A stretch of 64,000 bases of DNA, from NCBI GenBank assembly GCA_964443885.1, contig CAYUES010000001.1:4949-68948 (forward strand). Reading direction: 5' to 3'. Position 1 is the first letter of the stretch; every line of letters starts with the position of its first letter. The notes under the pieces were generated by a model. The model saw nothing but the letters and a program-made list of their open reading frames with translations, ran no database searches and was not told the DNA's origin. Positions 15,036 through 63,891 of this stretch are shown here, piece after piece. The position numbers and the translations under genes were made by a program. The DNA is from an uncultured Pseudomonadales bacterium. GTDB taxonomy: Bacteria > Patescibacteriota > Microgenomatia > UBA1400 > PJMF01.

Positions 15036-16328
15036 CTATGCAGTTTGGGTTTGTGCAGGTGTTTGCTGTTGATAGTGTTGGGCGATTTCAAAGTTAATCT
15101 GTGCTAGACGATTATACTTTGCGGTGCGTTCACCTCGATTAGTAGGACCAAACTTGGCGTAGTCAGAACCCACCCCCACTGCAAAATCAGCAATGAAGTC
15201 ATCGTTGGTTTCGCCACTCCGGTGTGACATCACGATCTGCCAGTTAGCAGCCTTCGCAACTTTAATCACCTCGATTGTTTCTGTAATCGTACCGACCTGG
15301 TTTGGTTTGACCAGCAGTGTATTACAAAGTTTATTGGCAATGGCATTTTCTAGCTTTGCTTTATTAGTAGCCAGGAAACTATCGCCGACGATCTTGGTAG
15401 TTTCACCAATCTCGGCTGTCACTGCCTTCCACATATTCGTGTCATCTTCCTGGTAGGGGTCTTCTAGGTAGAATACATTGTACATATCGCGCATTTTTTT
15501 ATAGTATGCCAGTAGTTCCTCGCCAGAATACGGTTGTGAACGATCTTTTATCGTATAACGGCCACCTGAATATAACTGTTCAGCCGCGACATCAACACCA
15601 AAGAACAAATCTTGAGTAAAGGTATACGGCGTGGCTTTGATAGTTTCGACCATGATCTCAAAAACGTCACTATTACTATACAGGTTTGGAGTGAAGCCAC
15701 CGACTAGTCCCACCGAGTGAATTGCTCCTTTTAAAATCAACACTTCTTCGAGTTTTTGAAAAATAGTGACAGCCATGTCGAGTGAGCCTTCATAACTCAA
15801 GTGACTAGCAGGAATAACTTGAAACTCTTGGAAGTCTAAGTTATTTGCTCCATGCTCTCCTCCATTTACCACGGTGTAGATACAGGTTGGAATTGTCAGT
15901 GATTGGGTCAGCTGATACTTTTGCATGATGTAGTAGTACAGAGGGACGTTCTGGGAAAGTGCGCCAGCCTTGAGGGTGGCCTGGGAAACAGCGAGGACGG
16001 CGTTTACCCCGAGCTTTGATTTATTTGGTGTGCCATCTAACTGGATTAAAATATTGTCAATTTCTTCTTGATTAGTGGGATCTTTGCCAATAATTTGTGG
16101 CGCAATATAGGTATTAATATAGTTGACGGCCGTCAAGACACCTTTGCCGAGCATGCGGTTGGGATCTTTGTCCCGTAGCTCTAGTGCTTCATACTTTCCA
16201 ATTGAAGTACCAGTGGGAACACTAGTTGCCACAATACCCCCTGTATCAAGCCAAAGTGTGCACTCAATAGTAGGCCAACCTCGAGAGTCGAGGATTTCAC
16301 GCGCGTATATTCCTTGAATGATTGCCAT
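15036..16328 (-). CDS. eno: Enolase (copy 1, in glycolytic operon)
   Basis: MAIIQGIYAREILDSRGWPTIE...SHRSGETNDDFIADFAVG...RGERTAKYNRL. Full-length enolase. Note ETND in place of canonical ETED and RGER in place of RSER. Confidence 0.9.
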   Translation of the reverse strand: MAIIQGIYAREILDSRGWPTIECTLWLDTGGIVATSVPTGTSIGKYEALELRDKDPNRMLGKGVLTAVNYINTYIAPQIIGKDPTNQEEIDNILIQLDGTPNKSKLGVNAVLAVSQATLKAGALSQNVPLYYYIMQKYQLTQSLTIPTCIYTVVNGGEHGANNLDFQEFQVIPASHLSYEGSLDMAVTIFQKLEEVLILKGAIHSVGLVGGFTPNLYSNSDVFEIMVETIKATPYTFTQDLFFGVDVAAEQLYSGGRYTIKDRSQPYSGEELLAYYKKMRDMYNVFYLEDPYQEDDTNMWKAVTAEIGETTKIVGDSFLATNKAKLENAIANKLCNTLLVKPNQVGTITETIEVIKVAKAANWQIVMSHRSGETNDDFIADFAVGVGSDYAKFGPTNRGERTAKYNRLAQINFEIAQHYQQQTPAQTQTA

Positions 16329-22945: not shown

Positions 22946-23031
22946 GCCGAGGTGCTGAAATTGGTAGACAGGCTGGACTTAGAATCCAGTGCCCTTCAAA
23001 CGGCGTGCAGGTTCGATTCCTGTCCTCGGCA
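22946..23031 (+). tRNA. tRNA-Leu (anticodon TAG), type II long variable arm, no encoded CCA
   Basis: Acceptor GCCGAGG/CCTCGGC, anticodon stem CTGGA/TCCAG with loop CTTAGAA, variable arm, TTCGATT T-loop. Confidence 0.85.
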
Positions 23032-23050
23032 CAATCTCATTTTAAGCACT

Positions 23051-25394: not shown

Positions 25395-26018
25395 TTACTT
25401 TTTAATGTACAAATACACTTCGTTTAGAGATTTTTCACTCTTCCAGTTGGGGAATGGAAAGCTATTGCAGATCACGCGCGCGCCTGGTTTGAGTTCGTTG
25501 AGTAACTTGGCTTCGAGATCTTTCATAATGTAGGTCATGCCAAAGAGTGTCACGATGTCGTAGTCGCCAAAGTTGGTAGTCCACATGTTTGCCCAGTAAA
25601 ACTCTGGGCGTTTTGCAGCCGGCAGTCCTCTACCCTGCCACTTGGACCACAGTACTAGGATTGGATTAATTTCATAGCCGTAGGCGCGTGCTCCAGCTGC
25701 AGCAAGCGCAAACGGAATTCGACCATCACCCGAGCCAATATCGACTGCTTTTTCGCCTTTTTTAATTTTTGCTAACTGCAGAATTGTCTCGATTTGTTTG
25801 TCTGAACTGGGATAGTAGATTGCGCCTTTGACAGTCGGGAGCAAAAACAGTAAATCAATGATAATGACAATGTATGCCAAGATGATGATGCTAATGCCGC
25901 TGAACCTGAAGAATGCTGGCTGTAACTCTGGGGGGAGCAGAAAGTAAATAATCACTTCAAGGGCAATAATCCCAAGGAAAATAGCTAGTGAACCAAGTAA
26001 GATTTTTTTTGGTGGCAT
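25395..26018 (-). CDS. Membrane-anchored class I SAM-dependent methyltransferase
   Basis: Two N-terminal TM helices then VDIGSGDGRIPFALA (motif I) and Rossmann-fold pattern. Confidence 0.65.
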   Translation of the reverse strand: MPPKKILLGSLAIFLGIIALEVIIYFLLPPELQPAFFRFSGISIIILAYIVIIIDLLFLLPTVKGAIYYPSSDKQIETILQLAKIKKGEKAVDIGSGDGRIPFALAAAGARAYGYEINPILVLWSKWQGRGLPAAKRPEFYWANMWTTNFGDYDIVTLFGMTYIMKDLEAKLLNELKPGARVICNSFPFPNWKSEKSLNEVYLYIKK

Positions 26019-30772: not shown

Positions 30773-31471
30773 ATGAGAAAACAACAGCAGATTTGGCAAA
30801 ACGAACATCTGACAGCCGCTACTCTCCCTTCAGAAATGACTGCATCTTCCATTCAAGAACCATCGAGTTATGTAGTTGCGTTCTGCGATTTTTTGAAAAC
30901 TCAAAATATATGTAGCGGGACACTTATCGATATTGGTGCTGGCAAAGGTAGAAACAGTATTTTCATGGCCAAACAAGGCTTTACCGTGACAGCAATAGAT
31001 TATATTCAAGAAGCAGTTGCATTTATTGATGCAGCTGCAAAAAAAGAAAAATTGGCCAAGCCCCTACAAGCAGTTTGCGCTGCCGCTGACGAAGATTGGC
31101 CATTTGCTGATAACTATTTTGATGTTGCAATCGATTGTTTTGCTTCTATTGATATTGAGACAAGGGCTGGACGAGAAAAATACCGCAGTGAATTACTGCG
31201 TACGCTCAAACCAGGTGGTTTTGCGCTTGTAGTTGTGGTTTCAAGCGATGATGAAATTGAAAAAGAGCTTATTAAAACAAATCCAGGTTTAGAAAAGAAT
31301 AGCAGTATTTGGCAGGTTAATGGAAAGTTTCAAAAAAATTATGATGAAGCAGAATTGAGAGAATTTTATTCTGATTTTAAAATTGTTGAGTTACAAAAAG
31401 TTTCAAAGCAAGCCCGCAAGTTAGGAAAAGATTTTACAGCTTCAAACTTTTGGGTTGTTTTGCAGAAGTAG
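30773..31471 (+). CDS. Class I SAM-dependent methyltransferase, TehB-like
   Basis: LIDIGAGKGRNSIFMA (motif I, cf. TehB DLGCGNGRNS), Rossmann pattern. Confidence 0.65.
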   Translation: MRKQQQIWQNEHLTAATLPSEMTASSIQEPSSYVVAFCDFLKTQNICSGTLIDIGAGKGRNSIFMAKQGFTVTAIDYIQEAVAFIDAAAKKEKLAKPLQAVCAAADEDWPFADNYFDVAIDCFASIDIETRAGREKYRSELLRTLKPGGFALVVVVSSDDEIEKELIKTNPGLEKNSSIWQVNGKFQKNYDEAELREFYSDFKIVELQKVSKQARKLGKDFTASNFWVVLQK

Positions 31472-32199: not shown

Positions 32200-32241
32200 A
32201 TTTTGTTCAACGTGATATTTTACCACGCGATAATTTTACTG

Positions 32242-32313
32242 TGCACCCAGCGGGAATCGAACCCACACAACTTGTTCCGAAGACAAGTGCCCTATCCGTT
32301 AGGCTATGGGTGC
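32242..32313 (-). tRNA. tRNA-Arg (anticodon TCG), no encoded CCA
   Basis: Reverse complement: acceptor GCACCCA/TGGGTGC, anticodon stem CTTGT/ACAAG with loop CTTCGGA, T-loop TTCGATT. Confidence 0.8.
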
Positions 32314-32516
32314 ATAGTCGCCTGCAAATGATATCACATGAGCAAGCTGTAACTATCCTGGATTATACCAACTTTCCTCAAGTATCGCATCACACAGAAC
32401 ACGAGTCGTACCAAAAGTCAAAATCGCACACAGAACCAAGGATTAAAAAGCACGGTGTTTCCAAGTTTTCTCCTACTCCCAAAATTGATCATAAAGGTCT
32501 ATACTCCAGAGGTAAT

Positions 32517-33206
32517 ATGAGTTCCTATTACGAATTAGTCAACAAAACTTTTAATCTTTCCCACCTTCGCGAGTACTTGCACGACAAATTTTCTGTTAAC
32601 GAGCAATCGTTCATTAATCCATTTATCACCGTGGCGCGTGAGCCAGGCAGTGGTGGCGCACCAATCGCCAAGGCTGTTGCCGAGAAGCTCGGCTTTGAGT
32701 TTATCGATGATCAAATTATCGAGGAAATCGCCCGCTCTACCAAACGTCGCAAGGCAGTCATTAAAGAAATTGATGAAAAAAGCCGCACCCGCATCGAAGA
32801 CGTGGTCCACTCGCTGGTGAATATCGAGTATTTAGACGAAGAAACGTATATTTCCGAGTTGGTACGCAGTATTCTCTCGTATGCGCACAAAGGCCGCTGT
32901 GTGATTCTAGGCCGTGGTGCCAACTTTATTACGCCATTTGCCAAAGGGTTGCATGTCAGTATCACCGCTCCGTATGAAGTTCGCGTCGAGCGGGCGATGC
33001 ACTATGAAGGTCTTTCTGAAGAGCAAGCCAAGGAAGTTATCAAAAAAGTTGAGGATGAACGGACAGACTTTGTAAAACAGTACTTTCGCAAAAATTTAAG
33101 TAAACGTAATGTCTTTGACATGACGTTAAACACCCACTACTTTACGGTACCCCAAGCCCGGGACGTGATCGTTGAAGCATTTCATCAAAAATTTGCGTCG
33201 CGGTAA
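32517..33206 (+). CDS. Cytidylate kinase-like family protein (PF13189-like P-loop protein)
   Basis: ITVAREPGSGGAPIAKAVAEKLGFEFIDDQIIEE resembles cytidylate-kinase-like P-loop region. ATG 32517 with GAGGT SD. The track ORF 5' extension (32241) runs through tRNA-Arg and is rejected. Confidence 0.6.
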   Translation: MSSYYELVNKTFNLSHLREYLHDKFSVNEQSFINPFITVAREPGSGGAPIAKAVAEKLGFEFIDDQIIEEIARSTKRRKAVIKEIDEKSRTRIEDVVHSLVNIEYLDEETYISELVRSILSYAHKGRCVILGRGANFITPFAKGLHVSITAPYEVRVERAMHYEGLSEEQAKEVIKKVEDERTDFVKQYFRKNLSKRNVFDMTLNTHYFTVPQARDVIVEAFHQKFASR

Positions 33207-33319: not shown

Positions 33320-33403
33320 GCCGAAATGGCGGAACTGGTAGACGCGCACGCTTCAGGAGCGTGTGGGAGCAATCCCATGGAGGTTCGAGTCCTCTTTTCG
33401 GCA
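33320..33403 (+). tRNA. tRNA-Leu (anticodon CAG), type II
   Basis: Acceptor GCCGAAA/TTTCGGC, anticodon stem CACGC/GCGTG with loop TTCAGGA, long variable arm. Confidence 0.85.
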
Positions 33404-33428
33404 CAGGCTGGTATAATACAGTCGTAAC

Positions 33429-33510
33429 GCCCGGGTGGTGAAATGGTATACACGTACGCTTGAGGTGCGTATGCCGCAAGGTGTGGAGGTTCAACTCCTC
33501 TCCCGGGCAC
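33429..33510 (+). tRNA. tRNA-Leu (anticodon GAG), type II
   Basis: Acceptor GCCCGGG/CCCGGGC, anticodon stem TACGC/GCGTA with loop TTGAGGT, long variable arm. Confidence 0.85.
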
Positions 33511-33557
33511 AAGTAGTACACTGCGGAAAAATAATTCGCAGTTATAATCACTATATT

Positions 33558-33631
33558 GGACGCTTAGCTCAGTTGGTTAGAGCACTGCGTTTACATCGCA
33601 GGTGTCGGGGGTTCGAGTCCCTCAGCGTCCA
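33558..33631 (+). tRNA. tRNA-Val (anticodon TAC)
   Basis: Acceptor GGACGCT/AGCGTCC, D-arm GCTCAGTTGGTTAGAGC, anticodon stem CTGCG/CGCAG with loop TTTACAT. Confidence 0.85.
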
Positions 33632-33670
33632 CAAGTATTTGAAAATACGCTACAATACTGTAGTATTCGA

Positions 33671-33743
33671 GCCAAGCTAGCCAAGTCGGTCACGGCGCAT
33701 GTCTGAAAAACATGAGATTGAGGTTCGATTCCTCAGCTTGGCA
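33671..33743 (+). tRNA. tRNA-Phe (anticodon GAA)
   Basis: Acceptor GCCAAGC/GCTTGGC, anticodon stem CATGT/ACATG with loop CTGAAAA, T-loop TTCGATT. Confidence 0.8.
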
Positions 33744-33775
33744 CATTCAATATAGGTATCCACTACTTGAATGTG

Positions 33776-42753: not shown

Positions 42754-42840
42754 GCCGCTACTATAGCAGGCTTGTGTAAAGATACGGTAATATTTTGTGA
42801 GAGATGAATCTTTAGCTGGCGGTTAGGGATATTTCTAGTG

Positions 42841-42911
42841 ATGCCTCGCTTGGATTCGAACCAAGATTAACGGCTTCAAAGGCCGCTGTCCTGCCATTGG
42901 ACGACGAGGCA
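42841..42911 (-). tRNA. tRNA-Gln (anticodon TTG)
   Basis: Reverse complement: acceptor TGCCTCG/CGAGGCA (U1-A72 as in bacterial tRNA-Gln), D-stem GTCC/GGAC, anticodon stem GCGGC/GCCGT with loop CTTTGAA, T-arm CTTGGTTCGAATCCAAG. Confidence 0.8.
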
Positions 42912-43604: not shown

Positions 43605-45158
43605 TTAGTCGCGCAAATCGCGGTTAATACTCCCAATCAGTTGTGGACCTTGATAAATCATGCCTGTGATAAGTTGAACTAAGTCTGCTCCCAAGGCTAT
43701 TTTTTGGCGCGCGTCTTCGGCAGAGAAAATGCCCCCAGTCCCAATAATCGTAAAGCGATTTTTATAGTGTTTTTTTGTCAAAGCAATCAATCTATTGGAA
43801 CGCTCAAAAGTAGGCTTGCCACTCAAGTTACCCTTGCGTTTTTGCCATTCTTTGGCGTCTTCGGTAGCGACGGCTGGATTAGTTTTGTCTTTTGTGAGGT
43901 TGCCCAAAATCACGCCAGCAGTTTTGTGTTTTGCGATGACCGCGAGCAGTTGCAGGCTTTCTTTTTCTGATTGATCAATCGGCATTTTGACATAGATCGG
44001 CTTGGTGACTTTCAGTTTATCAAGTGCAGTCAGTAGTATTTCCAACCTGTTTGTCGTGGTGAATGGTTCGCCACCAAACGTATTCGGGCAACTAATATTC
44101 AACTCATAGTAAGAATGACCGACTTTTGATTTCTCAAATAATCGAAAACAAGTAATAATGTCGGTAATCTGCTCTTTGTCAGTTTCGTAGGCAGCATTGG
44201 TGCTCCCGATACTAATTCCAACCGGGATTTTGAACTGTAACGGAGTAAGTTTTTTGATAATTTCCTGTGCGCCGATGTTTTTAAGACCTTTATTAACGAG
44301 CAGTGCTTTGGAGTTCGGGAAACGCCCAAGCATTGGCGAAGTATTGCCGTCATAAGAATGCAGTGTCACCGTACCAACGGTGTGCCAACCAAACCCGACC
44401 GAAGGCAGAATTTGTGTTAAGTCGGCGTTGTAGTCAAAGCCCGCTGATAAGCCAACTGGATTAGGAAAAACAATGCCATCACGTTTGGTGGCGAGCGCAG
44501 GGTCATAGTACGCAAAGAGTGCGCTATTGATGGCTTGAGTTATCGAGAAGTTGCCAAAAAATGCACCCAACTTTGTCATCGTATCGTGAACGAGCTCAGG
44601 ATCGAAAAGAAAGAAAATTGGCTTTAAAACAGTGGTGTACAAAAAACTAATCACCGAGTGAAAGACAGTCTTGGTGCTGTATCCAGATTTTTGGCTGTAG
44701 AGCGCAACGTAGGTTTGGGTAGTGATAAATAACAGCGTGCTGACAGCCGCAGAAATTAAACAGTACGAACACCACGCTTTAATCACCACTCCCATTAGAA
44801 ATACTAAGTAAAATGAAAAAAGTAAGCCACCGATCGTAATTAGTTGCAGTAAATCCAGTGGTGAGGTTTTACGAATGAAGGCAGACTTGGAAGTTTTGAA
44901 AAAAGAACTTTTTTTGAAGTCTAGTTCCAGAAAATGCATAACAGCGAGCACAAAAACAGTTAGGTAGTAACCCAAACCGAGTGCTGAAAGTGGAAGCGGT
45001 CCAATCTGGGCGTACGGACTACTTAAAACAGTTTCGCATTGAAAACCTGGCGTACACGGTGGAATCACCCCCGCAACCTTTTCATAGGTTAAGTAACTGG
45101 CATCGGCAATGCCAATCAAAGATAAAACGATCAGCAGCAAAGACATGAAAACATTCAT
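43605..45158 (-). CDS. pyrD: Fusion protein: N-terminal VKOR (vitamin K epoxide reductase) membrane domain (aa 1 to about 160; nt 44679..45158) plus class-2 dihydroorotate dehydrogenase (PyrD; nt 43605..44678)
   Basis: VKOR half: LTYEKVAGVIPPCTPGFQCETVLSSPYAQIGPLPLSALGLGYY (loop Cys pair plus TVLSSPYA motif) and AWCSYCLISA (TM CxxC). DHODH half: FLFDPELVHDTM (class-2 N-terminal helices, cf. E. coli LFQLDPERAHEFT), FPNPVGLSAGFD, GFGWHTVGTVT, NISCPNT, GNLSGKP, IIGTGGIFS, GADLVQLITG. Single uninterrupted ORF from ATG 45158. Confidence 0.8.
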   Translation of the reverse strand: MNVFMSLLLIVLSLIGIADASYLTYEKVAGVIPPCTPGFQCETVLSSPYAQIGPLPLSALGLGYYLTVFVLAVMHFLELDFKKSSFFKTSKSAFIRKTSPLDLLQLITIGGLLFSFYLVFLMGVVIKAWCSYCLISAAVSTLLFITTQTYVALYSQKSGYSTKTVFHSVISFLYTTVLKPIFFLFDPELVHDTMTKLGAFFGNFSITQAINSALFAYYDPALATKRDGIVFPNPVGLSAGFDYNADLTQILPSVGFGWHTVGTVTLHSYDGNTSPMLGRFPNSKALLVNKGLKNIGAQEIIKKLTPLQFKIPVGISIGSTNAAYETDKEQITDIITCFRLFEKSKVGHSYYELNISCPNTFGGEPFTTTNRLEILLTALDKLKVTKPIYVKMPIDQSEKESLQLLAVIAKHKTAGVILGNLTKDKTNPAVATEDAKEWQKRKGNLSGKPTFERSNRLIALTKKHYKNRFTIIGTGGIFSAEDARQKIALGADLVQLITGMIYQGPQLIGSINRDLRD

Positions 45159-45178: not shown

Positions 45179-45988
45179 CTACTCCTTTTGCAATACAAGG
45201 TAGGTATTGGATGTGCCCTCTTTACCATCGGCTTGGTAGGTTTTCAGTTGTTTTAGGCCTGACATGTGAGCTAGCTCCTCGATCTCACTTTGTGTAAATG
45301 AGTGGCAGTAGCGCGCAAGGTTGGTATGCTCTTTCCAGCCCAGTAGGAAGTCATTTTCTTCGAGTTGATCGGTTGCTACTCCAAACTGTGTAGGATCAAG
45401 CGATTTATGGTGGTACCGTTCAAACTCTGCAAAACGCCAAAAACTTACGGCTAGGATTCCGCCAGCGGAAAGTTTGTCTGCACACTTTTTAATACAGAGC
45501 TGGCGAAGTTCTTGTGTTGGAATATGATGCAACACACCAAACGAAGTAATGAGATCAAAATTATTTTCGTCTATTTGAGAAGAAAAAGTATCGTCTAAAA
45601 GTGAGGTGATGAGATCAAAATATAGAACTTTATTCCCCGCACCCTCTACTTTCACAGACTGAAGTAGCACTTCAGCTTCAGAAAGTAAGGCTTGGTTGCT
45701 ATCAGTACCAAGATATGCCAAGTCGAAGTCGGTACTTTCTTGTAGGAAAGTTAAAAATCTGCCGTTGCCGCAGCCAATGTCTAAAACTGCGATTTCTTTC
45801 TTTTGAAGTTCAGCGGTAATAATTGGAGTCAAGACGTTCCAACCTGCCCAGGACTGTTGGCGTGTTTGGCTAAACGACTCACTTACTTGTGTATAAAAAG
45901 CTTGTGTTAGCTGATTTAGTTTTTGAATAAGACTCTGTTGCATTTTCCTATTGTAACCCAGCGATCTTGGTTTTGTTTGGCTCTTCAA
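45179..45988 (-). CDS. Class I SAM-dependent methyltransferase
   Basis: VLDIGCGNGRFLTFL (motif I). Rossmann pattern with acidic residue at end of beta2. Confidence 0.7.
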   Translation of the reverse strand: MKSQTKPRSLGYNRKMQQSLIQKLNQLTQAFYTQVSESFSQTRQQSWAGWNVLTPIITAELQKKEIAVLDIGCGNGRFLTFLQESTDFDLAYLGTDSNQALLSEAEVLLQSVKVEGAGNKVLYFDLITSLLDDTFSSQIDENNFDLITSFGVLHHIPTQELRQLCIKKCADKLSAGGILAVSFWRFAEFERYHHKSLDPTQFGVATDQLEENDFLLGWKEHTNLARYCHSFTQSEIEELAHMSGLKQLKTYQADGKEGTSNTYLVLQKE

Positions 45989-46055
45989 ATAAGTAGTCAG
46001 ACTTTGGAGATACTTTATGCAGTTTTATCTCGATTTCAAGGTATAATAGCTTGCT

Positions 46056-47873
46056 ATGGTACTTGAAGAACCTCGGACAGAAAATCAAAAACGAATGACG
46101 GAACTGCTGCAAAAAATAGATGCAGTAGCCAGTTTGTCACATACAGAGTACGCCAAACTCGTCAAGAAATTTCCTCAAACAGATGGTGATGTCTACTCAA
46201 AAGAAGATATTATTCGTGCCTACCGCGAGTTACAAACCACTGTTGGTTTCAAAAGTACCCCGGCCGAGTTTATTGCTAAAGTCCGCATGAAACCAATGCG
46301 CACGCAATCTGGAGTGGCGCCAATTACTGTTTTGACCAAACCATTCCCCTGCCCTGGCAAGTGTATTTTTTGTCCAAATGACATCAGAATGCCCAAGAGT
46401 TACTTGAGTGATGAACCAGGTGCGCAGCGCGCTGAGCGAAACTACTTTGATCCATACTTGCAAACATATAATCGCCTGCAGGCGCTGCATAATATTGGCC
46501 ATGAAGTTGATAAGGCAGAGATTATAGTTTTGGGTGGCACTTGGTCGTATTATCCTGAAGCGTATCAGATTTGGTTTATTAAGGAATGTTTTAAAGCGCT
46601 TAATGATTTTGGACTGCGTGATGATCGGCTGGTGGTAGAAAGACGGTATGCCGACATGCAAGCGACATTGGAAAAAAACTTTCAGCATGCACCAACCAAC
46701 AGTCCAACCGAGAACGAACACAACTTGGAAAAGCACAAAATTGACGGCACTGTATTAGATAAAAGTTACAACCAAACTGTTTCGCAGTTGTACGTCGCAC
46801 CCGAGCGACTCGGTGGTTTTGATGAGTATCAACAAGCCAGCTGGGATGAACTTATAGCCGAGCAACTAGTAAACGAAACAGCCCAAGTTCGCAACGTGGG
46901 ACTCGTGATTGAAACTCGGCCTGATAATATTTCTGAAGCTGAAGTGTTGCGTGTTCGCCGCCTGGGTTGTACCAAAACGCAGATTGGGATTCAAAGTTTA
47001 CAAGATGAAGTTTTGACCAAAAACAAACGTGGACATGATGTGGCTGCAACTCGTAAAGCTTTTCGATTACTGCGCCGAGCTGGCTTTAAAATTCATGCGC
47101 ACTGGATGGCAAATTTGTATGGTTCTAGTGTTGAGCTAGATAAAAAAGACTTTAGTGAACTTTTCAGTGATCCTGATTTTATGCCAGATGAACTGAAAGT
47201 CTATCCATGTTCATTAATTGGTAGTGCCGAGTTAATGCAGTACTACAAAAAAGGTTTGTGGAAACCGTACTCACACGAGGAACTCTTGGATGTCGTCACT
47301 TTCGCAATCAAAAGTACGCCTGAGTACTGTCGGTTAACACGCATTATTCGTGACATTCCTTCTACTGACATTGTGGTGGGAAATAAAATGACCAACTTCA
47401 GACAAGTCGCTGAAGAAGCCTTGAAAAAAGATGGTGAACACTCCAACGATATTCGTGAACGTGAAATTAGAGATCAAAAATATACGCGTGAGCAGCTGGT
47501 TCTGAAAGAAACTCACTACGCTACTTCAGTTAGTGAAGAGTATTTTTTGCAGTTTGTGATCCCCGAGACGAATCAAATTATTGGGTTCCTACGCTTGAGC
47601 CTGCCTAAAGAGGCGGCTTTCATCCCTGAACTGGCAACTGCAGCTTTAATTCGAGAAGTCCACGTTTATGGTGACTTGGTGAAACTGGGAACTCGCACCT
47701 CAGATACTGCGCAACATCGTGGGCTTGGCTCAGAGTTATTAGTACGAGCACAGGAAATTGCAAAAGAAGCTGAGTTTAAGAAACTTACAGTCATTTCTGC
47801 GATTGGCACGCGCGAGTACTACCGCAAACGCGGCTTTAGTGATGGTGAGTTGTATCAACACCTCGAGCTGTAG
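46056..47873 (+). CDS. Elp3-family radical SAM/GNAT protein (bacterial homolog of Elongator catalytic subunit; tRNA U34 cm5 modification)
   Basis: FPCPGKCIFCPND (Cys cluster), YFDPYLQTYNRLQALHNIGHEVDKAEIIVLGGTWSYYP (Elp3 signature), C-terminal GNAT IREVHVYGDLVKLG...HRGLGSELL...VISAIGTREYYRKRGF. 605 aa. TATAAT 8 nt upstream of ATG. Confidence 0.8.
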   Translation: MVLEEPRTENQKRMTELLQKIDAVASLSHTEYAKLVKKFPQTDGDVYSKEDIIRAYRELQTTVGFKSTPAEFIAKVRMKPMRTQSGVAPITVLTKPFPCPGKCIFCPNDIRMPKSYLSDEPGAQRAERNYFDPYLQTYNRLQALHNIGHEVDKAEIIVLGGTWSYYPEAYQIWFIKECFKALNDFGLRDDRLVVERRYADMQATLEKNFQHAPTNSPTENEHNLEKHKIDGTVLDKSYNQTVSQLYVAPERLGGFDEYQQASWDELIAEQLVNETAQVRNVGLVIETRPDNISEAEVLRVRRLGCTKTQIGIQSLQDEVLTKNKRGHDVAATRKAFRLLRRAGFKIHAHWMANLYGSSVELDKKDFSELFSDPDFMPDELKVYPCSLIGSAELMQYYKKGLWKPYSHEELLDVVTFAIKSTPEYCRLTRIIRDIPSTDIVVGNKMTNFRQVAEEALKKDGEHSNDIREREIRDQKYTREQLVLKETHYATSVSEEYFLQFVIPETNQIIGFLRLSLPKEAAFIPELATAALIREVHVYGDLVKLGTRTSDTAQHRGLGSELLVRAQEIAKEAEFKKLTVISAIGTREYYRKRGFSDGELYQHLEL

Positions 47874-51922: not shown

Positions 51923-52867
51923 TTATATATTCTTAAGTACTGAATAAAAATCATTCTTTATGGTTTCGGTGACTAGTACTTCGACGATTCCCACGTCTGG
52001 CTGGCCGTAGTAAATCAAACTACCGAGCGGCAACAATAAAACTGCTGCTACTGCCGCTAGATCTTCTTCACCCATAACCAGAAGGTGCTGCCATTTTTTT
52101 TCTGAAATTTCTTCAATTTTTGCTACCAACTCCACGGTAATTTCACCTGCAGGATTAGTCGCCCTGACTTGAATCAGATCCAGCAGTTTACTGGAAGGCT
52201 GATACTCTACTCGCTTCTTTTTAAAATCAATGATCGCCGCAGTGTACTGCCAATTATTTGCAAAAAATGTCTCAAAAGTTGAGTCACCGACCAAACAGAT
52301 AATTGCAGATGATTGATTTTCTCTTGGCTCTGTCACAATCGTGCCGTGTGGTTTAGAAAAATAACTGCGCTGTCGCTCAGTCAATTTCAAATTCTTTGCA
52401 AAGATATTTTTATAGACGTTTCCCTCGCGATCGATTTGCCCTTTTCTGATTCTTTTACTCGAGATTATTTCGCCGACTTCATCAAATAAAAGTGGCGCTT
52501 TCTCAACATGAAGTGCAGTCAAACTAAGTGAGATTCTTTTATTATTAATAGCTTCTGCACCTGTCACTGTCTCAGGAGTTACACAAAGTGCTTCGATACG
52601 AGCATCAGAAGTAGTCGGTCCATAGACGTCTGTTAAGGCTGTAATCTCACAAGAAATATTCTGATCCTTACAAAAATCAGCGACTGCTTTTTCACGCACA
52701 TCATAAGGCTCCAGCTGATCATACAAATCTTTATGAAGGGTAATCTCTGGCTTAGTCAGACCGATAACCAGCTGCTCCGCCAGACTGGCAGCGTACTTCA
52801 GAAAAGCCCGATGTCCTGCATGAAAATGATCAAATGTGCCCCCAAGTGCTAGTACTGTATACTTCAT
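51923..52867 (-). CDS. Fusion of archaeal-type phosphopantetheine adenylyltransferase (HxGH cytidylyltransferase) with DUF359 (GTP-dependent dephospho-CoA kinase-like) domain
   Basis: N-terminus LALGGTFDHFHAGH (nucleotidyltransferase HxGH). C-terminal half ICLVGDSTFE...RATNPAGEITVEL...LVMGEEDLAAVAAVLLLPLGSLIYYGQPDVGIV, which I recall as DUF359/PF04019 motifs (GEEDL, YGQP). Confidence 0.6.
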   Translation of the reverse strand: MKYTVLALGGTFDHFHAGHRAFLKYAASLAEQLVIGLTKPEITLHKDLYDQLEPYDVREKAVADFCKDQNISCEITALTDVYGPTTSDARIEALCVTPETVTGAEAINNKRISLSLTALHVEKAPLLFDEVGEIISSKRIRKGQIDREGNVYKNIFAKNLKLTERQRSYFSKPHGTIVTEPRENQSSAIICLVGDSTFETFFANNWQYTAAIIDFKKKRVEYQPSSKLLDLIQVRATNPAGEITVELVAKIEEISEKKWQHLLVMGEEDLAAVAAVLLLPLGSLIYYGQPDVGIVEVLVTETIKNDFYSVLKNI

Positions 52868-53841: not shown

Positions 53842-54576
53842 TCACTCATTTTTTGGCAAAACAAACCCCAAGGTCAAGTAGACAGTTTTTCCTCTCATTC
53901 TTTCAAATTGAGGGTTTTCTCCTAAAAACTCTTCAGTAGGAGTGATTTCTTGGTAATTTTGTAGTTGTAATCCTGCCTCTATAAATGGCTGTAAGTAACT
54001 ACGAGTTGGTCTAAAATAAAATGGAAACATTTTTCCTGCCATTTCTATTTCACCTTTTACGTCTTCTCCATAGGTAGTGAGCCCAGAGTATCGTGAATTT
54101 GCACGCAACATTTTTTGTAAATATGGATACATGGGATGCACAACTGTAAAAACAAACTTGCCACCGGGTTTGAGAACACGAGCAACTTCTTTTCCTAAAC
54201 CAGACAAATTTTCAACATACATTAAAACAAAGCGAGAAATCGCAATATCAAAAGACTGATCTGCAAAAGGAAGTGGTTCATTCAAATCAACAAGTTGAGT
54301 TGGTAAATCAGGATGTTTTTCTCTAGCTTTTTCTAGTTGGACCTCAGAGCCGTCTACTGCGGTTACAATAGCACCAGCGCTTATAAGTTGTACTGCTACA
54401 AACCCATCTCCACAACCTAAATCTACAACTGTTCTTCCCGCTACTTCATCAATCAACCTCTTAAAAACAGGTAGTTCTGCAGCTTCTTCAAAGGTCAGAT
54501 CAAATTTTTTTGTTTCTTTTGCTTCGTGAAAATTTTGTGCTCCACCATTCCACTTTTCTGCATCTTTTATTGTCAT
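53842..54576 (-). CDS. Class I SAM-dependent methyltransferase
   Basis: VVDLGCGDGFVAVQL (motif I), AISRFVLMYV, Methyltransf_11-like. Confidence 0.7.
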   Translation of the reverse strand: MTIKDAEKWNGGAQNFHEAKETKKFDLTFEEAAELPVFKRLIDEVAGRTVVDLGCGDGFVAVQLISAGAIVTAVDGSEVQLEKAREKHPDLPTQLVDLNEPLPFADQSFDIAISRFVLMYVENLSGLGKEVARVLKPGGKFVFTVVHPMYPYLQKMLRANSRYSGLTTYGEDVKGEIEMAGKMFPFYFRPTRSYLQPFIEAGLQLQNYQEITPTEEFLGENPQFERMRGKTVYLTLGFVLPKNE

Positions 54577-54644
54577 TGAAAGTATTATACAGGATGTAAA
54601 TCACTGTATCTGCTGATGAAAATGGAAAATTGATGATACAAGTG

Positions 54645-54719
54645 TCGGGGAGACAGGACTCGAACCTGCGACCTCACGCTCCCAAAGCGCGCATTCTAGC
54701 CAACTGAACTACTCCCCGA
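54645..54719 (-). tRNA. tRNA-Pro (anticodon TGG)
   Basis: Reverse complement: acceptor CGGGGAG/CTCCCCG, anticodon stem CGCGC/GCGTG with loop TTTGGGA, T-arm GCAGGTTCGAGTCCTGT. Confidence 0.8.
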
Positions 54720-54793
54720 TTGTTACGATATTCTATCCCAAGTATGTGTCTTGAGCCAGTGATGATTATCACTTTTGGAATTATTGAACAACG

Positions 54794-54878
54794 TGCCTCG
54801 AGAGGGAATCGAACCCACACGACTTTTGAGGTCATCAGATTTTAAGTCTGACGCGTCTACCAATTCCGCCATCGAGGC
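54794..54878 (-). tRNA. tRNA-Leu (anticodon TAA), type II
   Basis: Reverse complement: acceptor GCCTCGA/TCGAGGC, anticodon stem TCAGA/TCTGA with loop CTTAAAA, long variable arm, T-loop TTCGATT. Confidence 0.8.
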
Positions 54879-56217: not shown

Positions 56218-56290
56218 GCGGGTGTAGCTCAATGGTCAGAGCTCCAGTTTTCCAAACTGGTGACGAGGGTTCGATTCCCTTCACCCGCTC
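56218..56290 (+). tRNA. tRNA-Gly (anticodon TCC)
   Basis: Acceptor GCGGGTG/CACCCGC, anticodon stem CCAGT/ACTGG with loop TTTCCAA, T-loop TTCGATT, discriminator T. Confidence 0.85.
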
Positions 56291-60495: not shown

Positions 60496-61560
60496 ATGAA
60501 AGACACATCTAAAGCATTCATGCGCGAGTGGGTAAATGATGGCATTCGTGCATTTTTTAAGTTGCGCGGGTTTAGAGAAGTCGAAACGCCTCTTTTTGTA
60601 GCCAATCCAGATCCAGAGCCAACAATTGAACTTTTCAAAACAATTCACAAAGCTAACGATTACTCAGTTACTGGCTACTTAAATGGCAGTCCTGAGTTTA
60701 TGATGAAGAAGTTACTTGCAGCAGGTTCAGGAAATATTTTCCAGATCTGCAAGAGTTTTCGTAATGGCGAACCTGTCAGTTCCAGACATAATCCTGAGTT
60801 TTCAATCCTAGAGTGGTATCGTGTCGAAGCTGACTACCGCGATATCATGACTGACTGTGAAAACTTATTTATCTTCCTCCACACCTATATTACTGCTCTA
60901 CGTGAGAAGAAACTGGCACATGCATATGATGTAGAGGTTCTGCCTGAAAGTGATCTGCAACTGACTTTCAAAGGTACCACCTACGATCTGCGTGGTCCAT
61001 GGGAGCGACTAAGTGTGCCCGAGGCTTTTGAAAAATATGCTCAGGTGAGCAAAGATGAACTGTTAGACGAAGCACTTTTACTAGCGAAAGCAAAAGAAAA
61101 AGGCTACTCAGTTACCGAAACTACTAGCTACGACGATGCGTTTTATCAAATCATGCTCAATGAAATCGAGCCACACCTGGGTGAAACAAAACCTACATTT
61201 TTGTACGACTATCCTGCTAGCCAAGCCGCACTTTCCAAGAAAAAAGCAGAAGATCCACGACTGGCAGAGCGGTTTGAGTTGTACTTGGGTGGCTTAGAAC
61301 TCGGTAACGCCTTTTCTGAACTTGCTGACTGGCAAGAACAGCAAGAACGTTTTACCAATCAACTAGCGACTCGCCGCGCCAATGCTCAAGATGCATGGCA
61401 GATTGATCAGCAGTTTATTGATGCGCTCAAAACAGGCTTCCCGCGCTGTGGTGGGATTGCGGTGGGTGTGGATCGATTAGTAATGCTTTTTGCAGATGCT
61501 TCAGAAATTTCCGAAGTGCTCTTCTTCCCTGCTGATGATATTTTTGAACTAGCCAAGTAG
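60496..61560 (+). CDS. epmA: Elongation factor P--(R)-beta-lysine ligase (EpmA/PoxA/GenX; class II LysRS paralog)
   Basis: RGFREVETP (motif 1), ICKSFRNGEPVSSRHNPEFSILEWY (motif 2 FRNE...HNPEF), C-terminal GGIAVGVDRLVM (motif 3). About 350 aa, no anticodon-binding domain. Confidence 0.8.
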   Translation: MKDTSKAFMREWVNDGIRAFFKLRGFREVETPLFVANPDPEPTIELFKTIHKANDYSVTGYLNGSPEFMMKKLLAAGSGNIFQICKSFRNGEPVSSRHNPEFSILEWYRVEADYRDIMTDCENLFIFLHTYITALREKKLAHAYDVEVLPESDLQLTFKGTTYDLRGPWERLSVPEAFEKYAQVSKDELLDEALLLAKAKEKGYSVTETTSYDDAFYQIMLNEIEPHLGETKPTFLYDYPASQAALSKKKAEDPRLAERFELYLGGLELGNAFSELADWQEQQERFTNQLATRRANAQDAWQIDQQFIDALKTGFPRCGGIAVGVDRLVMLFADASEISEVLFFPADDIFELAK

Positions 61561-61697
61561 TTGATTCTCTATAAAGTATCAATTCAATTTTTTGTAATGC
61601 TTAACGTGCAAGTGGCACAGATAGCCCTAGATATTTAGCTGTTTTGGAATCTATCTCGATCAGGTACAATATCGCTTGCTTCAATTCAAAAGGATCT

Positions 61698-62261
61698 ATG
61701 ACAATTAACGGCGGCAACATCAAAAAAGGTATGTATCTTCTTTTCAAGAATGAACCATACCAAGTTACCAAAACTGACTTTATGAGTCCTGGCAAAGGCT
61801 CTGCGTTTATGCGCGTCAAAATGCGTAATATCAAAACTGGTAACTCGCTTGAATTCACTTTTAAATCTACTGAATCAGTCGAAGAAATCGACGTGATGAA
61901 TACTGAGATGCAGTTTTTGTATGCTGACGATACCGAAGCGGTCTTCATGGATAACCGCAGCTTTGATCAAATGAGTGTCCCGATCGCTTTAGTTGCAGAA
62001 GATATTCAACTCCTTACTCCAGAAGCATCTGTCTATGTAGTAATTTACGATGACAAAGCAATTGGCGTGCGTCTGCCTCCAAAAGTTACGCTGACTATCA
62101 CCTATGCAGAAGAAGCTGTCGCAGGTAACACTGTTGGTAATGCTCGCAAAGAAGCTGAACTTGAGACAGGAATGAAGATCTTGGTGCCTTTATTTGTAAA
62201 AACAGGCGATAAAATTATTATCGACACCGCTACCCACGAGTACGTTTCACGCGCGAACTAG
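61698..62261 (+). CDS. efp: Elongation factor P
   Basis: KKGMYLLFKNEPYQVTKTDFMSPGKGSAFMRVKMRN (KOW domain with conserved loop Lys in PGKGSA), three-domain length. ATG 61698 with AAAGGA SD. Track start 61644 rejected. Confidence 0.9.
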   Translation: MTINGGNIKKGMYLLFKNEPYQVTKTDFMSPGKGSAFMRVKMRNIKTGNSLEFTFKSTESVEEIDVMNTEMQFLYADDTEAVFMDNRSFDQMSVPIALVAEDIQLLTPEASVYVVIYDDKAIGVRLPPKVTLTITYAEEAVAGNTVGNARKEAELETGMKILVPLFVKTGDKIIIDTATHEYVSRAN

Positions 62262-62363: not shown

Positions 62364-63635
62364 TTACCCATGTTTCTGGATGTGTAACTCACGCTCTATC
62401 TCGAGTAGACGGTTGTATTTAGCTACACGCTCGCCTCTTGTTGGCCCCACCTTTATGTAAATGGCACCAACTGCTACGGCTAGATCAACCAGTGCAGTAT
62501 CGTTTGTTTCCCCACCACCACGATGTGACGGAATCGTACTCATGCCATGTTGCTTCGCCAGCATGCAGGTCTCGATAGTTTCAGATACACTACCGATTTG
62601 ATTGAGCTTAATTAGGATACTCGAGATTGCTTGGAGTTCAATAGCTTTCTGTAGTCTCTCCACACTCGTAACGGTGACGTCATCACCAATCAACGGGACG
62701 TGGTGCGCATCGCACATCTGTTTGCAGACTTGCCAGCTTGCCCAGTCATCTTCATGCAGCGGATCTTCTAAAGTCACAATTGGATATTTTTCTAATAATG
62801 TCTGGAAGTACTCAATCACTTCAGTTGGTGAAAGTGTTCGGTTTTCCAAAGCAAAGTGATACATGCCATCTTTGTAAAACTCATTGGCAGCAGCATCAAT
62901 CGAGAAACCCACGTCTACACCAGCCTGATACCCTGCTCTTTCAATTGCCTGGAGCATATATGAAAATGGTGCTTCGTTGGTAGTAATACCGCTTGGTGCA
63001 AAAGCGCCTTCATTCCCAACATTGGTAGATAAGTTATTTTCTTGCAAGATCTTAGCCAACGCATGGTAACATTCCAACATAATTCGTACACTCTCTGTAC
63101 GGTAACCTTGCTTTAATACACTAAAGCAGTATTCTTGCAGATCAGTTGAGTGGTCAGCATGTTTCCCGCCTTCAATTACGACAGCCATTGGTTGGGGTAG
63201 CACTTCAAATGTTGCGCCGGTCTGAAAGGTGTCACGCAGATGCAGGTACAAGGGTTTTTTCTGTGAGTTGGCGGCGGCACGGGCGGTGGCGACCGAGACA
63301 GCTAAGATGGCATTGCCACCCAAGCGTGATTTTTGCGGTGTCCCATCCAACTCAATCATTGTTTTATCGATTAGTTTCTGATTATTGGCATCCAAACCTA
63401 GCAAATGCGGCGCAATTTCTTCGTGGACGTTTCGAATTGCTTGCAGCATGCCTTTGCCGTTGTATCGTGCTTGATCTCCATCTACCAAGACCGATGCCTC
63501 GTGTGAGCCAGCTGAAGCCCCATATGGTACTGATGCGAGGCCAACACTGCCATCTTCAACCGTGACTTTGACTTCAATTGAAGGATACCCTCCCGAAGCA
63601 ATAATTTCGTAACACTGGATAGCGGTAATCTGCAT
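62364..63635 (-). CDS. Enolase (copy 2, divergent paralog)
   Basis: MQITAIQCYEIIASGGYPSIEVKV...SHRGGGETNDTALVDLAVAVGAIYIKVGPTRGERVAKYNRL. Full-length enolase fold. Shares the ETND/RGER variants with copy 1. Confidence 0.8.
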   Translation of the reverse strand: MQITAIQCYEIIASGGYPSIEVKVTVEDGSVGLASVPYGASAGSHEASVLVDGDQARYNGKGMLQAIRNVHEEIAPHLLGLDANNQKLIDKTMIELDGTPQKSRLGGNAILAVSVATARAAANSQKKPLYLHLRDTFQTGATFEVLPQPMAVVIEGGKHADHSTDLQEYCFSVLKQGYRTESVRIMLECYHALAKILQENNLSTNVGNEGAFAPSGITTNEAPFSYMLQAIERAGYQAGVDVGFSIDAAANEFYKDGMYHFALENRTLSPTEVIEYFQTLLEKYPIVTLEDPLHEDDWASWQVCKQMCDAHHVPLIGDDVTVTSVERLQKAIELQAISSILIKLNQIGSVSETIETCMLAKQHGMSTIPSHRGGGETNDTALVDLAVAVGAIYIKVGPTRGERVAKYNRLLEIERELHIQKHG

Positions 63636-63753: not shown

Positions 63754-63825
63754 GCGCCTATAGTTCAACGGATAGAACAGGGGCCTTCTAAGCCTCAAAT
63801 CTGGGTTCGATTCCCCGTGGGCGCA
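63754..63825 (+). tRNA. tRNA-Arg (anticodon TCT)
   Basis: Acceptor GCGCCTA/TGGGCGC (one G-U), D-arm AGTTCAACGGATAGAAC, anticodon stem GGGGC/GCCTC with loop CTTCTAA, T-loop TTCGATT. T-stem pairing imperfect in my hand-fold. Confidence 0.7.
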
Positions 63826-63891
63826 CAGTTGATTGATAGTTTGTTGATAACGGTGCCGAATAAAACAAAATACGGTATAATTGCAACTCTT

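Follow-up and report, generated by a model that had tools for sequence, protein, structure and literature searches.

Which wobble-uridine modification might be made by a bacterium whose genome encodes Elp3? The question is raised by a 64-kb stretch of Patescibacteria (candidate phyla radiation, CPR) DNA, positions 4,949-68,948 of contig CAYUES010000001.1 (the window, meaning the whole stretch that was analyzed), which carries an open reading frame (ORF) for an Elp3-type radical S-adenosylmethionine (SAM) protein at positions 46056-47873. Judged by its sequence, this ORF is a genuine stand-alone bacterial Elp3, and formation of 5-carboxymethyluridine (cm5U) or a related nucleoside (collectively, xcm5U) at the wobble position (U34) of tRNA is its best-supported function. 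The neighboring gene, on the opposite strand, encodes a Trm9-like methyltransferase. Together, the two genes quite probably constitute an archaeal/eukaryote-type xcm5U wobble pathway in a CPR genome, and bacteria that carry the pair probably make 5-methoxycarbonylmethyluridine (mcm5U). The Elp3 features on which this argument draws are listed first.

46056..47873, + strand: Elp3 gene, 605 aa, ATG start, stop codon included, frame intact
46350..46373, + strand: radical-SAM [4Fe-4S] motif C99-x3-C103-x2-C106 (CPGKCIFC), aligned to the cluster cysteines of the M. infernus (Min) and Dehalococcoides mccartyi (Dmc) enzymes
46911..46913, + strand: E286, equivalent to tunnel/active-site residue E207 of MinElp3 in the 6IAD alignment; invariant
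47196..47204, + strand: K381-V-Y383, equivalent to MinElp3 K302/Y304; invariant in alignment set A1
47712..47729, + strand: acetyl-CoA motif Q553-H-R-G-L-G558 of the lysine acetyltransferase (KAT) domain, aligned with the QHxGxG of Min, Dmc and eukaryotic Elp3

The original prediction had described a full-length Elp3 at these coordinates, and both the exact ORF and all of the quoted motifs were recovered: CPGKCIFCP at aa 99-107, YFDPYLQTYNRL...HEVDKAEIIVLGGTW at aa 130-163 and VISAIGTREYYRKRGF at aa 579-594. The family model that it had named, TIGR01211 (NCBIfam Elp3), matches the 605-aa protein with 483.7 bits (E 6e-145; model positions 50-517 of 522), which is 134 bits over the cut-off of 350. 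Pfam returns Radical_SAM, Radical_SAM_C and GNAT domains, with Acetyltransf_1 at 25.4 bits against a cut-off of 20.7. The best hits are Elp3 proteins rather than the generic radical SAM/GNAT proteins that had been held out as the alternative; the runner-up NCBIfam model, MnmL/YtqA (TIGR01212), reaches 51.2 bits, below its cut-off of 180, and covers only residues 280-447, the common radical-SAM core. Sequence matches in the PDB are confined to Elp3 chains (E 2e-98 to 1e-75), with 333 bits for M. infernus, 298 for Dehalococcoides, and 259-274 for the human, mouse and yeast proteins. An AlphaFold2 (AF2) model built with 71 homologs has a mean predicted local distance difference test (pLDDT) score of 83.8. 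In a fold search of the PDB with this predicted structure, the top 11 matches are all Elp3, at template modeling (TM) scores of 0.84-0.91 normalized to the target, and the E value jumps from 3e-31 for the last Elp3 to 2.5e-5 for the next match. As an identification this adds nothing new, since both PGAP and JGI already apply the name Elp3 to close homologs, and the exact protein is present in NCBI.

The catalytic residues are conserved. The three Fe-S cysteines, whose absence had been named as the other sign of a misassignment, are all present, and C99, C103 and C106 are invariant in 153 of 153 relatives. E286, K381 and Y383 occur in nearly all of 150 representatives, and mutation of their counterparts in MinElp3 (E207, K302 and Y304) abolishes activity (PMC13315578). 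In the KAT domain, Q553, H554, G556 and G558 are invariant in set A1, as is the tandem Y588-Y589. MinElp3 converts U34 to cm5U by radical SAM chemistry with acetate derived from acetyl-CoA, using tRNA-Arg(UCU) as its in vitro substrate (PMC13315578). A cm5U-type wobble role is best supported for the bacterial protein because its best matches are Elp3 itself and because the Fe-S cysteines are kept. The view of the protein as a radical-SAM/GNAT fusion of generic type, or as the product of a decayed pseudogene, for which nothing speaks, is effectively excluded by the intact frame and motifs, the 61-77% identity to hundreds of full-length homologs and the margin over the TIGR01211 cut-off.

The most informative context for this Elp3, which was absent from the original prediction, is the conserved gene that diverges from it.

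45179..45943, - strand: class I SAM methyltransferase resembling Trm9 (254 aa, start codon ATG at 45943), transcribed divergently from its partner Elp3
45944..46055, no strand: divergent intergenic region between methyltransferase and Elp3, 112 bp

For the methyltransferase, the longest ORF would start with TTG at position 45988, but the ATG at 45943 is favored both by the family alignment and by a gene call in NCBI that matches it exactly. Pfam places the protein in Methyltransf_11/12/25/31, and its AF2 model has a pLDDT of 95. By sequence, its closest characterized or solved relative is Trm9. A phmmer search of the PDB returns Yarrowia Trm9 (5CM2_Z) as the best match (E 1.3e-4). A profile of 85 homologs again places 5CM2_Z at the top (52.6 bits, E 3.5e-13), with the sole near-full-length alignment; the next match (44.2 bits, E 1.3e-10) is partial. 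An hhalign comparison with Trm9 gives a probability of 99, and 10 of 21 homologs named by JGI carry the name 'tRNA (uracil-5-)-methyltransferase TRM9'. The active site of Trm9 has been defined by mutagenesis and docking, and the residues needed in the Saccharomyces cerevisiae (Sc) enzyme are R29, H116 (together with H115), W145, W168, R241 and N271, as well as Y18 (PMC4678810). Among the 85 members of the bacterial family, Y17, D55, H139, W169, R211 and N246 are each conserved in all 85, H140 in 84, and R28 and W/F203 in 83. D55 is the SAM-binding Asp, equivalent to Sc D72, whereas N246, which lies past the end of the hidden Markov model alignment, was matched to Sc N271 by position. Altogether, nine of ten Trm9 active-site positions are kept.

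Gene context supports a functional link between the methyltransferase and Elp3. We scanned one genome per species from 185,579 species and found at least 537 stretches with a gene related to this Elp3, of which the best 80 were compared as loci. They belong to Patescibacteria (Pacebacteria, Paceibacterota, Microgenomates, Peregrinibacteria) and to the class Anaerolineae of the Chloroflexota. A methyltransferase lies upstream of Elp3 on the opposite strand in 66 of the 80, and in 56 of these the gap is less than 400 bp. Of the 14 other loci, five have practically no upstream DNA. The methyltransferase is the only neighbor from the window that is common to the Patescibacteria and Chloroflexota loci, whereas the RecQ, MgsA, MazG-like and dihydroorotate dehydrogenase (DHODH) neighbors are common only within Patescibacteria. 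More distant methyltransferase homologs in Coriobacteriia, Myxococcota and another 1.2-Mb contig stand head-to-head with 588-625-aa proteins that share 44-50% full-length identity with this Elp3, and the pair was seen in five of five extra gene contexts that were looked up in other lineages. Short-form Elp3s likewise adjoin a divergent methyltransferase, in which the catalytic signature recurs. One of these Elp3s, from Ca. Amarolinea, has the Zn site found in archaeal and Dehalococcoides Elp3 and lacks the insertion described below. Because such short forms are paired as well, the pairing is a general property of bacterial Elp3 loci, irrespective of the insertion. There is precedent in archaea: Elp3 and Trm9 genes were noted in 2008 to be clustered in Sulfolobus, and HvoTrm9-Trm112 was found in 2018 to make mcm5U in vivo in Haloferax.

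These data allow a mechanism to be proposed. Based on the family and its residues, the [4Fe-4S] cluster on C99/C103/C106 would cleave SAM reductively to give a 5'-deoxyadenosyl radical. The KAT domain would bind acetyl-CoA through QHRGLG and hydrolyze it upon tRNA binding, and the acetyl or acetate unit would then pass to the radical-SAM site lined by E286, K381 and Y383. There, the radical would take a hydrogen atom from it, and addition to C5 of U34 would yield cm5U34. The 254-aa Trm9-like enzyme could then methylate the carboxyl group of cm5U34 with SAM, giving the methyl ester mcm5U34, the reaction that Trm9-Trm112 carries out in eukaryotes and Haloferax. We infer this last step from the conserved gene pairing and the conservation of the active site.

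Several observations weigh against the two-gene pathway. A 2020 review found no direct evidence of xcm5U34 in bacteria, and DmcElp3, the only bacterial Elp3 that has been assayed, showed very weak activity. No curated NCBIfam model matches the methyltransferase above its cut-off. The position of Sc Y243, in the RYYH motif, is occupied by Cys213, with Cys in 80 of the 85 members and Val in Amarolinea; Y243A of Sc Trm9 retains ~10% activity (PMC4678810). Foldseek ranks Trm9 second, after an uncharacterized Methanosarcina methyltransferase, and with Trm9 only at rank 2 it was set aside as a discriminator among class I methyltransferases. For Trm112, the obligate activator subunit of Trm9, a weak phmmer test, in which an E. 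coli YcaR query was run against stop-to-stop segments, detected no Trm112/YcaR-like ORF either in the window or at the 80 loci. Finally, among the 75 loci whose upstream DNA extends for 3.6 kb or more, nine lack the methyltransferase, and several Chloroflexota loci have none nearby.

The points that concern the methyltransferase (no family cut-off passed, Tyr replaced by Cys, a fold search that does not discriminate, no Trm112 match and the unpaired Chloroflexota loci) also favor a different account, in which Elp3 is genuine and makes cm5U34 while the methyltransferase acts elsewhere. The product would then be cm5U, 5-carbamoylmethyluridine (ncm5U) or another nucleoside, and the pairing would reflect co-regulation or chance retention. 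We consider this unlikely. The pair is kept over at least four phyla while the remaining neighbors change, and R28, H139/H140, W169, R211 and N246, which are the Trm9-specific carboxylate- and uridine-binding residues, are essentially invariant. Trm9 is also the top solved relative by sequence.

A further alternative is that the Elp3 has been re-purposed, which would be suggested by two features specific to its subfamily, an 83-aa insertion and the loss of the Zn site. These features and an N-terminal extension are located as follows.

46608..46856, + strand: 83-aa insertion, aa 185-267, between alpha2 and beta3 of the radical-SAM barrel; alignments to solved Elp3 structures break at 184/268
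47442..47459, + strand: degenerate central-linker Zn site S463-N-D465-I-R-E468; archaeal/Dehalococcoides counterpart C-x-C-I-R-C
46056..46271, + strand: N-terminal extension, aa 1-72, predicted helical; alignments to PDB chains begin at query residues 72-79

The Elp3 proteins of Min, Dmc, yeast, mouse and human have 7-12 residues at the insertion site, compared with 83 here, and the insertion is kept in all clade members and close relatives (gap fraction 0.03). Within the insertion, conservation is strong in the C-terminal half (DKxYNQ..LYVAPERLGGFDxYQxAxWxEL), whereas the N-terminal half varies. AF2 predicts helices at 191-207, 217-227, 238-253, 255-258 and 263-273, with pLDDT values of ~75-92, and a count of residues from the sequence makes the segment net acidic. 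From the (beta/alpha) topology of radical-SAM enzymes, we infer that the insertion lies on the barrel face opposite the Fe-S cluster and active site. Its position and acidic charge make a structural or partner-binding surface more likely than a catalytic role. Across the wider subfamily, the insertion ranges from 47 to 325 aa. Some representatives, namely P0228 (850 aa), P0233 (753 aa), P0255 (774 aa), P0261 (900 aa) and P0317 (829 aa), have 137-325-aa insertions at this site or long terminal extensions, which makes the alpha2/beta3 junction an apparent hot spot of domain insertion in this subfamily. In the linker, Cys is absent from all three Zn positions in every one of 153 relatives. The three-cysteine site is not family-defining, given that eukaryotic Elp3, which has C-R-D-V-R-T at these positions, also lacks the Zn cysteines; its loss marks the subfamily. 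Helices are predicted by AF2 in the N-terminal extension at 9-23, 29-38, 49-59 and 69-76. The extension is found in all clade members, is missing from DmcElp3, and equals the mammalian Elp3 N-terminus in length.

The insertion and the Zn-site loss tend to occur together. An exhaustive search of 1.84 billion representatives at 50% identity gave 990 Elp3 clusters at E <= 1e-30, and the two features were scored in the 132 full-length clusters among the top 150.

Insertion of at least 40 aa: 50 clusters without the Zn site, 10 with it
Insertion of less than 40 aa: 12 clusters without the Zn site, 60 with it

A rough neighbor-joining tree places the query inside a pure no-Zn clade of 45 clusters. 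The original prediction had called for a phylogeny against archaeal and Dehalococcoides Elp3, and Min and Dmc both fall outside this clade. Because of the association between insertion and Zn loss and the exclusion of Min and Dmc from the clade, we assign the query to a distinct bacterial Elp3 subfamily with a helical insertion and no three-cysteine Zn linker. A specific affinity to eukaryotic Elp3 had been considered because the Zn site is missing and the N-terminal length matches. It was rejected: overall scores favor the archaeal enzyme, the KAT domain gives a near-tie, and the Zn site has been lost in many bacterial clusters.

With the insertion and Zn-site loss specific to the subfamily, the enzyme could in principle act at another RNA position or on another nucleic acid, or acetylate proteins. 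Such a change of function is, in our judgment, very improbable. The residues essential for cm5U formation are all invariant, and eukaryotic Elp3 is a U34 enzyme although it, too, has no Zn cysteines. By topology, the insertion would sit at the alpha2/beta3 junction, where the barrel faces away from the cluster, and a Trm9-like partner fits a U34 pathway.

The preferred reading remains a two-gene xcm5U pathway of Elp3 and a Trm9-like methyltransferase. A broader version can be advanced tentatively, as a speculation that we would sooner doubt than adopt. In this version, Patescibacteria, Anaerolineae, Coriobacteriia and Myxococcota would have a complete mcm5(s2)U34 pathway, where s2 denotes 2-thiolation, consisting of Elp3 and a Trm112-independent Trm9 and possibly replacing MnmE/MnmG. 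The insertion would stand in place of the Zn linker and might provide a docking surface at which, for example, the methyltransferase or tRNA binds or the protein self-associates, thereby supplying in cis part of the role of the Elongator accessory subunits. None of MnmE, MnmG, MnmA, CmoA and CmoB is encoded within the 64-kb window, a result that says nothing of the whole genome.

Possible tRNA substrates are encoded nearby. The original prediction had listed eight U34 tRNA genes, and ARAGORN found all eight.

63754..63826, + strand: tRNA-Arg(UCU), candidate substrate
22946-23032, 32241-32313, 33558-33632, 42840-42911, 54644-54718, 54793-54878 and 56218-56290: other U34 tRNA genes

As an argument for Elp3 function, which is how they had been used, these genes carry no weight, since U34 tRNAs are encoded in all bacteria. 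In yeast, Arg-UCU, Gly-UCC, Gln-UUG, Val-UAC, Pro-UGG and Leu-UAA are among the substrates of Elongator, and isoacceptors with these anticodons are all present in the window, as would be the case in most bacteria. At 33320-33744 (+), four tRNA genes (Leu-CAG, Leu-GAG, Val-TAC and Phe-GAA) form a tight cluster. A 321-aa cytidylate-kinase-like ORF at 32241-33206 (+), with its Pfam match starting at aa 129, overlaps tRNA-Arg(tcg) at 32241-32313 (-); its true start is probably well downstream.

The intergenic region between the methyltransferase and Elp3 has few recognizable signals. A TATAAT at 46042-46047 ends 8 nt upstream of the Elp3 ATG, and there is no Shine-Dalgarno sequence between the two (46042-46055); because of this spacing and the missing Shine-Dalgarno sequence, the Elp3 mRNA may have little or no leader. 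No -35 element fits this TATAAT, which a consensus promoter scan did not list. Promoter and terminator counts in the region do not exceed the shuffled expectation, and Rfam gives no match there at E <= 1. A third conserved partner was sought in enlarged methyltransferase-Elp3 gaps, and only lineage-specific inserts were found: a small membrane protein (Chloroflexota), a sigma factor and a transposase. The membrane protein, of 130-155 aa, is conserved in Chloroflexota loci, is encoded in the same direction as Elp3, and does not occur in the Patescibacteria loci. Its motifs are an N-terminal '..IKRI.(V/L)GSA.K(V/I)GA' and a C-terminal 'AYNL..W(V/I)GGLEVEL', and we presume from its appearance that it is DUF3566-like.

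Locus L058, 487-885, + strand: inserted membrane protein
Locus L066, 5223-5627, + strand: inserted membrane protein
Locus L071, 4358-4825, + strand: inserted membrane protein
Locus L077, 1317-1778, + strand: inserted membrane protein
Locus L079, ~5500-5921, + strand: inserted membrane protein

The window as a whole is ordinary chromosomal DNA of Patescibacteria type, with UvrA, UvrB, LexA, glycolytic genes, RecQ, elongation factor P (EF-P) and 14 tRNA genes. The GC content at the Elp3 locus (0.43) equals that of the rest. An origin in a foreign island or phage was rejected on the basis of this uniform composition and the housekeeping neighbors. The locus shows no mobile-element signature.

Other genes in the window merit a brief record. 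Adjacent to the methyltransferase, a 517-aa ORF at 43605-45158 (-) combines an N-terminal VKOR membrane domain (Pfam, 88 bits) with a class 2 quinone-dependent DHODH (DHO_dh, 161 bits), and its homologs occur in 26 Patescibacteria loci. Such a fusion would tie pyrimidine synthesis physically to a module that reduces quinone or forms disulfides. At 51923-52867 (-), a cytidylyltransferase-like domain of the phosphopantetheine adenylyltransferase (PPAT) type is fused to DUF359, which we take to be the archaeal GTP-dependent dephospho-CoA kinase family; the fusion would be an archaeal-style module for the last two steps of CoA synthesis in a CPR bacterium. A truncated class II lysyl-tRNA synthetase-like gene at 60496-62261 (+) (354 aa, tRNA-synt_2 only, EpmA/GenX-like) lies directly upstream of EF-P, which suggests that EF-P is beta-lysylated in this organism. 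Two full-length enolase paralogs, at 15036-16328 (-) (430 aa) and 62364-63635 (-) (423 aa), are present in an apparently small genome. Three more class I SAM methyltransferases are encoded at 25395-26018 (-), 30773-31471 (+) and 53842-54576 (-), the last of which adjoins tRNA-Pro and tRNA-Leu genes.

The significance of the locus does not lie in a new kind of enzyme; what is added is the conserved Elp3/Trm9-like pair and a Zn-less, insertion-bearing subfamily. Both the pairing and the subfamily traits appear to be undescribed in the searchable literature, in which we found nothing on Elp3 in CPR or in Chloroflexota beyond Dehalococcoides and nothing on a bacterial Trm9 or on an Elp3 subfamily with the insertion and without Zn. 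Reviews from the leading Elongator laboratory confine bacterial Elp3 to Dehalococcoides and report no evidence for xcm5U34 in bacteria. The original prediction, too, called Elp3 sporadic in bacteria, which understates its presence in this lineage: besides the stretches counted above, more than 8000 protein clusters match. The locus is part of a far larger bacterial radiation of Elp3, in which a Trm9-like methyltransferase is nearly always its partner, and the pairing predicts mcm5U-type wobble uridines in bacteria, including CPR with reduced genomes. If true, the view that xcm5U is archaeal and eukaryotic whereas 5-(carboxy)methylaminomethyluridine, (c)mnm5U, is bacterial would change. Minimal soluble two-protein systems, with neither Elongator nor Trm112, would also become available for mechanistic work, and the subfamily would offer a natural structural variant with which to probe the role of the Zn linker.

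Among known systems, MinElp3 (PDB 6IA8/6IAD/6IAZ) is the best overall match in both sequence (333 bits) and fold (TM 0.90-0.91). It is likewise a stand-alone, two-domain protein, is extended at its N-terminus, and has the E/K/Y tunnel residues and the KAT motif. It differs in its cluster motif, which is Cx4Cx2C (CPHGKCIFC) rather than Cx3Cx2C, in keeping the linker cysteines (CRCIRC), and in having ~7 residues where the query has its 83-aa insertion. DmcElp3 (PDB 5L7J/6IA6), the only studied bacterial Elp3, shares with the query its bacterial origin, its stand-alone nature, an identical CPGKCI(F/Y)CP cluster motif and the fold (TM 0.88). However, it has no N-terminal extension and no insertion, binds Zn through its three cysteines, and falls outside the query's 45-cluster no-Zn clade. 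Eukaryotic Elp3 (PDB 8PTX, 8AVG, 6QK7/8ASW) resembles the query in lacking the Zn cysteines, in the middle Asp of the linker (CRDVRTRE versus SxDIRARE) and in N-terminal length, with query residue 72 pairing with chain residue 72. The query KAT domain scores 85 bits against mammalian Elp3 and 74 against Min. Nevertheless, the eukaryotic proteins function only inside the six-subunit Elongator, have 12 residues at the insertion site, and score lower overall (259-274 bits).

The methyltransferase shares with Trm9-Trm112 (yeast/Yarrowia, PDB 5CM2; HvoTrm9-Trm112) the class I fold, Y...TRxxxW, HH, two Trp, RYxH and the terminal Asn, and its gene clusters with Elp3, as Trm9 does in Sulfolobus. It differs from Trm9 in having only ~23-25% identity, Cys in place of Sc Y243 and an extra insertion of ~30 residues between W169 and W203. 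MnmE/MnmG, the usual bacterial pathway for C5-methylene-modified wobble uridines (xm5U34), is a functional analogue that acts on an overlapping set of tRNAs, likewise at C5 of the wobble uridine. Its proteins and chemistry are unrelated to those proposed here, with a GTPase and an FAD enzyme using glycine and methylene-tetrahydrofolate.

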